This document shows, one piece after another, positions 807 through 38,559 of a stretch of DNA of 64,000 nt. A program made the translations under genes and the position numbers. The stretch comes from Escherichia coli (lineage in GTDB: Bacteria > Pseudomonadota > Gammaproteobacteria > Enterobacterales > Enterobacteriaceae), in NCBI RefSeq assembly GCF_030013595.1, contig NZ_CP122768.1. One strand, given 5' to 3'. The notes below the pieces were generated by a model. It did not search any database and had not been told where the DNA came from. It saw only the letters and a list, made by a program, of their open reading frames with translations. Position 1 is the first letter of the stretch, and each line of letters opens with the position of its first letter.

Positions 807-903
807 GGCTCATTCCTCTTAATGTCCTGCCGATACTCTTATTGTCACACACCACTGACATTGCCTCCACCTTTGTGATAAAGATTTATGCTTTAGACTT
901 GCA

Positions 904-8812: not shown

Positions 8813-11509
8813 TTACTGCCAGCCGTAACGACGGCTATAGAACCCTTTCACCAACTGGGTTAACGTCATATACCCTGCCAGAATCGCAACCAGCCACGGG
8901 AAATAGCTTAACGGCAGCGCCTGCAGCTGCAGATAACTGGCCAGCGGTGAAAACGGCAATGCGATCCCGACAATCATCACGATCACGGTCATGATCATTA
9001 ACGGCCACGATGCACAGCTCTGAATAAACGGTACACGACGGGTGCGGATCATATGCACAATCAGCGTTTGCGACAGTAAGCCCACCACAAACCAGCCCGA
9101 CTGGAACAGCGTTTGCGTTTCCGGCGTGTTGGCATGGAATACCCACCACATCAGGCAAAACGTCAGAATATCGAAGATCGAGCTGATCGGTCCGAAGAAG
9201 ATCATAAAGCGCCCCAGATCCGCCGGATTCCAACGCTGCGGCTTTTGAATTTGCTCGTCGTCGACGTTATCAAACGGGATCGCCACCTGTGACACATCGT
9301 ACAGCAGGTTCTGAATAAGCAAGTGTAACGGCAACATCGGCAGGAAGGGCAAGAAAGCACTCGCCACCAGCACGCTGAACACATTACCGAAGTTAGAACT
9401 CGCCGTCATTTTGATGTATTTCAGCATGTTGGCGAAAGTGCGACGTCCCTCAATAACCCCCTCTTCCAGCACCATCAGGCTTTTTTCCAGCAGGATGATA
9501 TCAGCCGCTTCACGGGCAATATCTACCGCGCCGTCCACAGAAATGCCGATATCCGCAGCACGTAAGGCGGGCGCATCATTTATACCATCGCCCATAAAGC
9601 CAACCACATGCCCTTCGCGCTTCAGTAAGGTCACAATGCGTTCTTTATGCATCGGCGTCAGGCGAGCAAACAGCGTGGTGCGCTGTGCGAGATTTGCCAG
9701 TTCGTCGTCAGATAGCGTTTCAATATCACTACCAATGACCACCTCTCCCGCGTCCAGCCCCACTTCATGGCACACTTTCGCTGCAACTAACTCACTGTCG
9801 CCAGTAAGGATTTTTACGGTAATGCCACTCGCTTTTAATGCCTTCAGTGCCGGAGCAGTTGTCTCTTTTGGCGGATCAAGGAAAGCAATATATCCTTCGA
9901 GGATCAGGTCGGATTCATCCGCCCGCTGGTAATCTCCTTCACGCGCTGGCAGGTATTTCGTCGCCACCGCAACCACGCGCAGCCCCTGACGATTCAGCGT
10001 ATCAGTAACCCGCTTAATCTTACGCAGCATGATGTCATCGAGCGGCACAATCTCGCCATTGTGACGCACCTGCGAACACACATTGAGGATTTCCTGCAAT
10101 GCACCTTTGCAAACCAGCTGATGGTGCTCGGTATTTTCTGCCACTACCACCGACATCCGGCGACGCTCGAAATCAAACGGAATCTCATCAATTTTTTGCC
10201 AACGGCTGGCCAGCGAGCGCGCTGACTCTTCATCCGTACCTTCGAGCACCGCGGTATCAAGCAGGTTTTTAAGTCCGGTCTGGTAATGACTGTTCAACCA
10301 CGCGCTATGCAGCACGCGTTCGCTGGTTTTACCGGAGATATCGGTATGATTCTCCAGCACAATTTTATCCTGCGTCAGGGTGCCGGTTTTATCAGTGCAC
10401 AGAATATCCATTGCGCCAAAGTTCTGAATGGCATCCAGATGCTTGACGATCACTTTCTGTTTCGACAGCTTTACTGCGCCGCGCGCCAGCGTCGAGGTAA
10501 CAATCATCGGCAACATTTCTGGCGTTAAGCCTACCGCGACCGAAAGCGCAAACAGTGCCGCTTCCCACCAGTCACCTTTGGTGTAACCGTTGATAAGCAA
10601 CACCACCGGAGCCATCACCAGCATAAAGCGAATCAGCAGCATACTGACGCGGCTGATCCCTTGCTGAAAGGCATTCGGCTCGCTTTCCTGCTCACTAACA
10701 CGCCCCGCCAGTTGACCAAACCAGGTGTTGGCTCCTGTAGCAATCACCATTGCTTGTGCCGTGCCGCTCACCACGGTGGTGCCCATAAAACACAGGGTGT
10801 CGCACTCCAGCGGATTGCTGTGCTCCGGCTGGCGAGTAGTAGCGGCTTTTTCCACGGGCAGAGACTCACCGGTTAACGACGCCTGAGCGACGAACAGATC
10901 CCGCGCCTGCAAGATACGTAAATCTGCCGGGATCATATCCCCCGCCGCCAGTTTTATAATATCGCCGGGCACCAGCTGGTCGATCGGGATCTCCAGCCAG
11001 CCATTTTCGCCTTTGTCGTTAATTACGCGCAGCACCGTCGCGGTATTGCTGACCATCGCTTTCAGGGCATCTGCCGCTTTAGTGGAACGTGCTTCCTGAA
11101 TAAAGTTCAGCAACGTAGAAATAGCGACCATTAGCGCGATAACACCCGCGGCAAATAAATCTTCCGTGGCGTAAGAAATAGCGCCGAGAATGGTGAGTAA
11201 AATATTAAAGGGGTTGCGATAGCAGACCCATAAATGAACCCACCACGGCGACGGTTGTTGTGCGGGTAATTTATTTTCACCATGTTGTTCGCGGGCAGAT
11301 TCCACTTCCGCCTGATTTAATCCTTCCGGATGGGTGTCGAACGTTTTCCACAATTCTTCTTCGGGCATCACCGCCATTTTCAGGCAATGCGCACTTAAGG
11401 AGGGCGGGACCGCCGTATTCACTGTCTGCTGCGCGCCAGGCAATGGATCGCGATGAACCAGACGGGAAGGTAAATGGCGAATGAACCGGGTAAAAATTTC
11501 TTTAAACAT
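8813..11509 (-). CDS. mgtA: Mg2+-importing P-type ATPase (898 aa)
   Basis: ORF track; DKTGTLT phosphorylation motif, TGDGxNDAP motif. Confidence 0.95.
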   Translation of the reverse strand: MFKEIFTRFIRHLPSRLVHRDPLPGAQQTVNTAVPPSLSAHCLKMAVMPEEELWKTFDTHPEGLNQAEVESAREQHGENKLPAQQPSPWWVHLWVCYRNPFNILLTILGAISYATEDLFAAGVIALMVAISTLLNFIQEARSTKAADALKAMVSNTATVLRVINDKGENGWLEIPIDQLVPGDIIKLAAGDMIPADLRILQARDLFVAQASLTGESLPVEKAATTRQPEHSNPLECDTLCFMGTTVVSGTAQAMVIATGANTWFGQLAGRVSEQESEPNAFQQGISRVSMLLIRFMLVMAPVVLLINGYTKGDWWEAALFALSVAVGLTPEMLPMIVTSTLARGAVKLSKQKVIVKHLDAIQNFGAMDILCTDKTGTLTQDKIVLENHTDISGKTSERVLHSAWLNSHYQTGLKNLLDTAVLEGTDEESARSLASRWQKIDEIPFDFERRRMSVVVAENTEHHQLVCKGALQEILNVCSQVRHNGEIVPLDDIMLRKIKRVTDTLNRQGLRVVAVATKYLPAREGDYQRADESDLILEGYIAFLDPPKETTAPALKALKASGITVKILTGDSELVAAKVCHEVGLDAGEVVIGSDIETLSDDELANLAQRTTLFARLTPMHKERIVTLLKREGHVVGFMGDGINDAPALRAADIGISVDGAVDIAREAADIILLEKSLMVLEEGVIEGRRTFANMLKYIKMTASSNFGNVFSVLVASAFLPFLPMLPLHLLIQNLLYDVSQVAIPFDNVDDEQIQKPQRWNPADLGRFMIFFGPISSIFDILTFCLMWWVFHANTPETQTLFQSGWFVVGLLSQTLIVHMIRTRRVPFIQSCASWPLMIMTVIVMIVGIALPFSPLASYLQLQALPLSYFPWLVAILAGYMTLTQLVKGFYSRRYGWQ

Positions 11510-11775
11510 AAGGAGTCCCTCCGCACTGTCTGAAACAGTACAGAAATGTCTTCAGGCGTGGCGAAGCCTTACCTGAAGGTAATAAAGCTGAGCAGGGACG
11601 TTAAAACGTCACGGCCTTACGCATCCGGTAACGCCGTGAAAAGACGGGCTTACCGGAAAAGTTTTAATCTCCGTCGAGGGAGAGGCGTGGGATCAGGTTC
11701 CATATAACCTCCGGTAAGTGAAAAAAGCGCCGCAAATAATAAGGAGAATCCAATAATATTCGTAGCATCTATGGC
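11510..11775 (-). promoter_or_regulatory. mgtA 5' leader (Mg2+/proline-sensing leader RNA) containing mgtL
   Basis: Long untranslated leader between PhoP-type promoter and mgtA start, with proline-rich leader ORF. Confidence 0.7.
11650..11703 (-). CDS. mgtL: mgtA leader peptide (17 aa, [17 protein letters not shown])
   Basis: ATG at 11703 and TAA at 11650 on minus strand. Confidence 0.85.
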
Positions 11776-11796
11776 GATATAATACCTGCAGGCAAC

Positions 11797-11813
11797 TAAA
11801 CCAACGATAAACC
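11797..11813 (-). promoter_or_regulatory. PhoP box (direct hexamer repeat) of the mgtA promoter
   Basis: Minus strand reads GGTTTA-TCGTT-GGTTTA. Confidence 0.7.
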
Positions 11814-11887
11814 AGACTTTACCCATTGCTGAATGCACGGGTAAAGTTAGGCTCAAATAATTAAACAACACGTTACGGGACAACAGG

Positions 11888-12835
11888 ATGCAAAATCGGC
11901 TGACCATCAAAGACATCGCACGCTTAAGCGGCGTGGGGAAATCTACGGTTTCCCGGGTGCTGAATAACGAAAGCGGCGTGAGCCAGCGCACGCGCGAGCG
12001 TGTTGAAGCAGTGATGAATCAGCATGGATTTTCCCCTTCCCGCTCTGCGCGCGCTATGCGTGGGCAAAGCGATAAAGTGGTCGCCATCATTGTTACCCGT
12101 CTGGATTCGTTGTCAGAAAATCTCGCCGTTCAAACCATGCTGCCAGCGTTCTATGAACAAGGTTACGACCCAATCATGATGGAAAGTCAGTTTTCCCCGC
12201 AATTAGTTGCCGAACATTTGGGGGTGCTGAAACGGCGTAATATCGACGGCGTAGTGCTGTTCGGTTTTACCGGCATAACAGAAGAAATGTTAGCCCACTG
12301 GCAGTCATCGCTGGTTCTGCTGGCGCGTGACGCAAAAGGCTTTGCTTCGGTCTGTTATGACGACGAAGGGGCAATCAAGATCCTGATGCAACGGCTGTAT
12401 GACCAGGGACATCGTAATATCAGTTATCTCGGCGTGCCGCACAGTGACGTGACGACCGGTAAGCGACGTCACGAAGCCTACCTGGCGTTCTGCAAAGCGC
12501 ATAAATTGCATCCCGTTGCCGCTCTGCCAGGGCTTGCTATGAAGCAAGGCTATGAGAACGTAGCAAAAGTGATTACGCCTGAAACTACCGCGTTACTGTG
12601 CGCAACCGACACGCTGGCACTTGGCGCAAGTAAATACCTGCAAGAGCAACGCATCGAGACCTTGCAACTGGCGAGCGTCGGTAATACGCCGTTAATGAAA
12701 TTCCTCCATCCGGAGATCGTCACCGTAGATCCCGGTTACGCCGAAGCTGGACGCCAGGCGGCCTGCCAGTTGATCGCGCAGGTAACCGGGCGCAGCGAAC
12801 CGCAACAAATCATCATCCCCGCCACCCTGTCCTGA
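11888..12835 (+). CDS. treR: LacI-family trehalose operon repressor (315 aa)
   Basis: ORF track; N-terminal HTH LTIKDIARLSGVGKSTVSRVLNN. Confidence 0.95.
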   Translation: MQNRLTIKDIARLSGVGKSTVSRVLNNESGVSQRTRERVEAVMNQHGFSPSRSARAMRGQSDKVVAIIVTRLDSLSENLAVQTMLPAFYEQGYDPIMMESQFSPQLVAEHLGVLKRRNIDGVVLFGFTGITEEMLAHWQSSLVLLARDAKGFASVCYDDEGAIKILMQRLYDQGHRNISYLGVPHSDVTTGKRRHEAYLAFCKAHKLHPVAALPGLAMKQGYENVAKVITPETTALLCATDTLALGASKYLQEQRIETLQLASVGNTPLMKFLHPEIVTVDPGYAEAGRQAACQLIAQVTGRSEPQQIIIPATLS

Positions 12836-28725: not shown

Positions 28726-28762
28726 AGTTTCCCCCGTTGTAAAGCGTGCGCCAGATAAGACA

Positions 28763-28855
28763 CAACTGCGTCGCATCAGGCATCTCGCACAACCGCCGGA
28801 TGCGGCGTGAATGCCTTATCCGGCGGCCCACAAGTCGGCATCAGGCATTGATGCC
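28763..28855. repeat. REP/BIME repeats between ytfR and ytfQ
   Basis: gccggatgcggcgtgaatgccttatccggc and flanking gcatcaggc units. Confidence 0.6.
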
Positions 28856-38385: not shown

Positions 38386-38559
38386 TTTTCATTTATCAGC
38401 AGTCTGAATTTTAACCCTCTGGCGGCTTTACAGTACCTTACGCTATACTAGCCACTGAAAATGCCGGTTCACTTTCTTCGAATCGGCTTTCAATGTGTAT
38501 TTCACACAAATTAATCAACTTCCCCTTCCGAGGATCTGGCCTGAAAGGTCGGATAAGAT

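Follow-up and report, generated by a model that had tools for sequence, protein, structure and literature searches.

The region from 11510 to 11813 of the window (the whole 64-kb stretch of Escherichia coli DNA that was analysed) is almost certainly the native control region of mgtA, which in our working model acts at two tiers, transcription initiation and transcription elongation. This promoter and leader are an ordinary copy of an already-known E. coli system. We directly established the identity and exact positions of its elements, its sequence identity with K-12, and the capacity of its leader RNA to form both of the alternative conformers. The region is a composite, in which a box for a response regulator is combined with a leader peptide and an RNA switch, and composites of this kind are recognisable from the letters alone. 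The features on which the analysis is based are collected in Table 1.

Table 1. Positions of the features at the mgtA control region and its flanks, in window coordinates.
Feature	Position	Strand	Remarks
treR ORF	11888..12835	+	315 aa, divergent from mgtA; product identified as TreR
PhoP box GGTTTATCGTTGGTTTA	11813..11797	-	GGTTTA-TCGTT-GGTTTA direct repeat; about -42 to -26
Spacer GTTGCCTGCAGG, box to -10	11785..11796	-	12 nt; length conserved, sequence polymorphic
-10 hexamer TATTAT	11779..11784	-	5/6 match to TATAAT; 12 nt downstream of the box
Inferred +1	11771..11772	-	K-12 coordinate 4467362/3; from the -10 position and published numbering
mgtA 5' leader	11510..11772	-	262-263 nt; 100% identical to K-12
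RF01056 (Magnesium-II, Rfam)	11603..11718	-	family of Mg2+-responsive mgtA leader RNAs; full-length, model positions 1-115 of 115
Stem-loop A	11649..11718	-	three-way junction around mgtL and its Shine-Dalgarno; OFF, high-Mg2+ conformer
mgtL Shine-Dalgarno GGAGG	11708..11712	-	4 nt before the ATG; in the 5' arm of stem A
mgtL	11650..11703	-	17 codons and stop; ATG at 11703, TAA at 11652..11650
Stem-loop C	11624..11657	-	ON, low-Mg2+ conformer; -18.6 kcal/mol as an isolated hairpin
K-12 Term-seq 3' end 4467490	11644	-	6 nt after the mgtL stop (PMC7815308 supplement)
Stem-loop B	11610..11638	-	OFF conformer
K-12 Term-seq 3' end 4467576	11558	-	49 nt before the mgtA ATG (PMC7815308 supplementary file 3)
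mgtA Shine-Dalgarno GGAGG	11522..11518	-	
mgtA CDS	8813..11509	-	898 aa, Mg2+-importing P-type ATPase; TIGR01524 match and annotation

Identity and setting of the locus

The product of the gene downstream of the leader matched the TIGR01524 equivalog at 1607.5 bits, against a cut-off of 610.75. All elements of the mgtA control region were found on the minus strand at the coordinates that had been given for them in the original prediction. The bounds of that prediction proved exact, as the leader ends at 11510, directly 5' of the mgtA ATG (11509), and the PhoP box begins at 11813, but it had left the strand unstated.

A 461-nt query over the region had matches in 5425 of 5426 complete E. coli genomes, and in the annotation of the matching genomes the locus lay between treR and mgtA, always in the order treR, mgtL, mgtA. 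The wider neighbourhood is treC-treB-treR / mgtL-mgtA / ridA-pyrI, and the correct annotation of the locus confirms that the window is the E. coli chromosomal segment pyrI-ridA-mgtA-mgtL-treR-treBC.

Copies of treR, mgtL and mgtA were also observed on records labelled as plasmid (11 records, and 3 'plasmid' places among the matches of the 461-nt query), which range from 0.09 to 5.4 Mb and were all typed as non-mobilizable. Most of these look like mislabelled chromosomes or chromosome fragments, and one of them, NZ_AP023207.1 (93.8 kb), might be a genuine F-prime-like capture of the locus.

Elsewhere in the window, Rfam models matched four other RNA elements. The ES239 sRNA (RF02756; 42597-42719, minus strand) and the RpsF leader (RF02893; 55906-55990, minus strand), the autoregulatory leader of the rpsF operon, were full-length matches at 157.4 and 110.1 bits, respectively. 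The STnc450 sRNA (38441-38498, plus strand) scored 77.2 bits, and naRNA4/CssrE (28749-28825, minus strand) scored 61.6 bits, barely over its gathering threshold of 59.5.

A predicted PhoP-activated promoter

In the original prediction, a GGTTTA-TCGTT-GGTTTA direct repeat had been read as a PhoP box at the -35 position, and our results bear this out. The pattern (T/G)GTTTA-N5-(T/G)GTTTA has a single match in the 64-kb window, compared to 0.05 expected by chance from dinucleotide shuffles (a match appeared in 5 of 100 shuffles of the window). This match covers the -35 position (TCGTTG at 11806..11801), and its core is that of the Salmonella PhoP box. The direct repeat and its 12-nt distance to the -10 hexamer are the features of PhoP architecture I, class II activation, and we predict from them that the mgtA promoter of the window is PhoP-activated. 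PhoP binding and PhoP/PhoQ-dependent induction in low Mg2+ have been reported for mgtA of both E. coli and Salmonella (PMC11552253, PMC5740661, PMC3335776).

The position of the transcription start was approached in two ways. A leader mutation described in the literature affects GUAAGGCCGUGA, numbered nucleotides 152-163 of the E. coli mgtA 5' UR (PMC11552253). This sequence begins at window position 11620, and the published numbering therefore sets +1 at 11771 (K-12 4467363), which is 8 nt past the last base of the -10 hexamer. When the architecture I geometry of Salmonella mgtA was applied to the window, +1 was predicted at 11771/11772. A start near the predicted promoter, as had been expected, is thus what the numbering implies, and the distance from it to 11510 agrees with the leader of roughly 260 nt that had been proposed.

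A generic sigma-70 scan of 11400-12000 found no promoter. We rejected this result as evidence against a promoter, since PhoP class II promoters have no -35 consensus, and an empty scan is what would be expected of such an activator-dependent promoter. On the other side of the box, only ~75 bp (11814-11887) separate it from the treR start codon (11888, plus strand), so that the treR promoter must be back-to-back with the mgtA promoter or overlap it. Two of the four SNPs that distinguish the mgtA control region and its upstream flank from K-12 lie in this segment.

To assess conservation, we compared five sequences, from E. coli, E. albertii, E. whittamii, Escherichia sp. E1V33 and K. pneumoniae, the last taken from a chromosome mislabelled as a plasmid. 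Both half-sites of the box, the 12-nt length of the spacer, the Shine-Dalgarno, a 17-codon mgtL, an M(E/D)PDPTP N-terminus and foldable stems A, B and C were kept in all five, while the sequence of the spacer and the C-terminal half of MgtL varied. In the K. pneumoniae orthologue (~73% identity), the box reads GGTTTA-CGTTC-GGTTTA and is separated by 12 nt from the -10 hexamer TATCAT, and RF01056 matches at 116 bits. The 17-codon mgtL of this orthologue encodes MDPDPTPHPRWSNLSFR and starts MDPDPTPHP. In E. whittamii (locus L026, ~825-880, minus strand), the leader is ~12 nt shorter between +1 and stem A than in E. coli; the conserved architecture does not seem to require this 5' segment.

We also considered whether the direct repeat and the short ORF might be a fortuitous resemblance that has no regulatory role. 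An exact scan for the 17-mer box in 298 Gb of contigs showed that such boxes do arise by chance: besides five Escherichia loci (E. albertii, E. whittamii, Escherichia sp. E1V33 and two in E. coli), it returned matches in ~50 unrelated taxa, which is near the ~35 hits that chance would give. However, every one of the Escherichia loci carries RF01056 just downstream, at 121-127 bits, while RF01056 was absent from all of the non-Escherichia loci that were tested for it. In addition, the box motif is unique in the window and correctly placed, its half-sites are invariant across the Escherichia and Klebsiella sequences compared, and alignment to the characterised leader, the check proposed in the original prediction, showed 100% identity, from the -10 hexamer to the mgtA start, to the K-12 locus on which experiments have been done. 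The conservation and identity data already refute a chance resemblance, and we regard its probability as negligible. Salmonella was not among the matches of the 298-Gb box scan, though an identical core is listed for Salmonella mgtA (PMC3335776); the cause may be the coverage of the collection or a strain difference, and the scan was of little help for comparison with distant taxa.

The leader RNA, mgtL and control of elongation

The leader RNA folds more stably than its shuffled counterparts. The minimum free energy of the 263-nt leader was -87.3 kcal/mol, compared to -66.6 ± 4.9 kcal/mol for shuffled sequences (z = -4.2), and none of 200 shuffles folded as well. The match to RF01056 scored 125.8 bits (gathering threshold 40, E = 5.5e-25) and ends 93 nt upstream of the mgtA ATG. 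It thus lies above the gathering threshold of the family and in the leader of a TIGR01524 gene, and two mutually exclusive conformers were obtained for it computationally. Stems A and B together make up the minimum free energy fold. Stem C arises when the 3' arm of A (CCGGUAAG) pairs instead with its complement, the 5' arm of B (CGUUACCGG). Blocking of the 5' arm of A made C the preferred fold, in which the C/U-rich tract that separates A from B is sequestered. These folds correspond to the published pair of conformers, in which A and B form the OFF state in high Mg2+ and C the ON state in low Mg2+ (PMC11552253).

Comparative support for the stems was also examined. Inspection of the cmscan alignments showed that stem B of Klebsiella differs from that of E. 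coli by one compensatory change (G-C to U-A) and by the replacement of a G/G mismatch with a U-A pair. RNAalifold on the five sequences reported 2 compensatory pairs, from an alignment in which MAFFT had misaligned the Klebsiella stem B. The covariation is thin, and structural support therefore comes mainly from the Rfam model and the folds of the individual sequences.

The ORF and Shine-Dalgarno of mgtL are embedded in stem-loop A. The 17-codon, proline-rich mgtL of the original prediction is present with a Shine-Dalgarno of its own, and the identical ORF is labelled mgtL, 'mgtA regulatory leader peptide MgtL', in RefSeq. Its product starts MEPDPTPLP, with prolines at positions 3, 5, 7 and 9 and acidic residues at E2 and D4, which together produce the EPDP motif described as destabilising (PMC11282234). 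For the MG1655 sequence, translation of mgtL and its coupling to mgtA read-through have been demonstrated with reporter fusions, translation in vitro and toeprints, and EttA was found to stabilise ribosomes at EPDP (toeprint at Pro3) and thereby to repress mgtA (PMC11282234). A 113-aa ORF at 11650..11991 on the minus strand was rejected as a gene, as it is merely the mgtL frame remaining open further upstream.

Two K-12 Term-seq 3' ends were transferred to the window through identical sequence. The end at 11644 lies between stems A and B, in a U-rich tract, and implies a transcript of ~128 nt that contains mgtL only. For the end at 11558, the published Rho score is 1.56, with a significant Rho region, and the intrinsic-terminator score of 1.46 is below the threshold of 3 (PMC7815308). 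Our scan of the leader found no intrinsic-terminator-like sites. However, a ChIP approach gave no sign that Rho terminates transcription of mgtA in E. coli (PMC11552253), which conflicts with the Rho-dependent assignment in PMC7815308. The involvement of Rho is firmly shown in Salmonella and disputed in E. coli (PMC11552253, PMC7815308).

In our working model, low periplasmic Mg2+ would be sensed by PhoQ, and phosphorylated PhoP would bind the GGTTTA-N5-GGTTTA box, which would stand in for a -35 element 12 nt upstream of TATTAT and allow PhoP, acting by the class II mode, to recruit RNA polymerase. Transcription would begin at ~11771/2, and the 262-263-nt leader would then control whether the polymerase gets to mgtA. 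When cytoplasmic Mg2+ is ample, ribosomes would translate mgtL to its stop codon, stems A and B would form, and the C/U-rich tracts around B would be left exposed, leading to a premature end of transcription within the leader. In Salmonella this step is Rho-dependent, and one of the K-12 3' ends, located 49 nt upstream of the ATG, matches it. When Mg2+ is low, or when Pro-tRNA charging or EF-P/EttA is limiting, ribosomes would stall or fall off at the EPDP/proline codons early in mgtL, which would permit stem C to form, hide the termination signal and let mgtA be transcribed. For the copy in the window, PhoP dependence, the Mg2+ response, translation of mgtL and termination are expected from published work, given that its transcribed leader is identical to that of K-12.

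Whether Mg2+ is sensed by the RNA itself or via mgtL translation is 'still not fully understood' (PMC11552253). If the leader were to bind Mg2+ directly and switch between A+B and C without translation of mgtL, the ORF would be incidental, and the curation of RF01056 as a Mg2+ riboswitch aptamer family is in line with such a mechanism. However, the 17-codon ORF, its strong Shine-Dalgarno and the M(E/D)PDPTP start are kept as far as Klebsiella despite ~27% DNA divergence, the E2Q/D4N substitutions in mgtL abolish expression of an mgtA reporter in E. coli (PMC11282234), and regulation is 'primarily' mgtL-dependent according to the literature (PMC11552253). We therefore consider a switch that operates on the RNA alone to be improbable.

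The leader might instead act chiefly as a sensor of proline or hyperosmotic stress, in which ribosomes would stall at the four mgtL Pro codons when Pro-tRNA(Pro) is limiting, and mgtA would be induced independently of Mg2+. Four Pro codons among the first nine of mgtL agree with this proposal. It was put forward by Park et al. in 2010 (cited in PMC3335776, PMC5740661 and PMC11552253), is one reading among those published and lies behind the word 'proline-responsive'. Against it, the later work cited in PMC11552253 and PMC11282234 places the emphasis on sensing mainly by Mg2+-dependent destabilisation of the ribosome at the acidic/proline EPDP motif, and one study has questioned the proline-sensing role (PMC5740661). 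We regard proline as the chief signal as rather unlikely. The description of the elements as Mg2+/proline-responsive control of mgtA thus stands insofar as they match the mgtA control region and RF01056, while its proline component is debated. Altogether, we favor the two-tier model of PhoP-dependent initiation followed by mgtL-linked control of elongation.

Comparison with known mgtA and corA systems

The closest comparison is with K-12 MG1655 (NC_000913.3, 4467321-4467624), in which mgtL is annotated as b4702 at 4467431-4467484 and mgtA as b4242 from 4467625, and which shares the treR-mgtL-mgtA-ridA-pyrI neighbourhood. The two agree base for base in the PhoP box, in the -10 hexamer and throughout the transcribed leader, mgtL included. 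At this locus, four SNPs separate the window from K-12, all of them upstream of +1; two fall in the spacer, which reads GTTGCCTGCAGG in the window and GTTGTCAGCAGG in K-12, and the other two lie further towards treR. Only 117 of 5425 complete E. coli genomes carry the exact 45-nt promoter of the window. There is a slim chance that, in this lineage, the minority spacer allele GTTGCCTGCAGG measurably alters basal expression of mgtA or the PhoP-dependent strength of its promoter. Nothing but the spacer allele departs from the textbook system; the mgtA leader is still a model of how a single mRNA leader integrates signals, to which the present copy adds nothing new.

Salmonella mgtA is the type example of PhoP architecture I: a single, directly oriented box, TGGTTTATCGTTGGTTTAA, placed 12 nt before the -10 hexamer, a distance of 7 from the -10 to +1, a 264-nt leader, and class II activation that was shown to be independent of alpha-CTD (PMC3335776). 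The window shares with it an identical PhoP-box core (PMC3335776 Table 1), the orientation of the box, the 12-nt distance and a leader of ~260 nt. The alternative stems, A and B versus C, with mgtL located inside A, are also common to both systems, whereas the -10 hexamer is TATTAT in the window and TATGAT in Salmonella. The Salmonella MgtL peptide is slightly different from E. coli MgtL, which starts MEPDP.

The corA leader of E. coli and Salmonella, with its corL, resembles the mgtA leader in having a similar three-way junction, an embedded uORF, alternative conformers and Rho-dependent attenuation (PMC11552253). It differs in that its promoter is constitutive and has no PhoP box and in that corL has one conserved proline (PMC11552253), and it belongs to a separate locus that lies outside the region analysed here.
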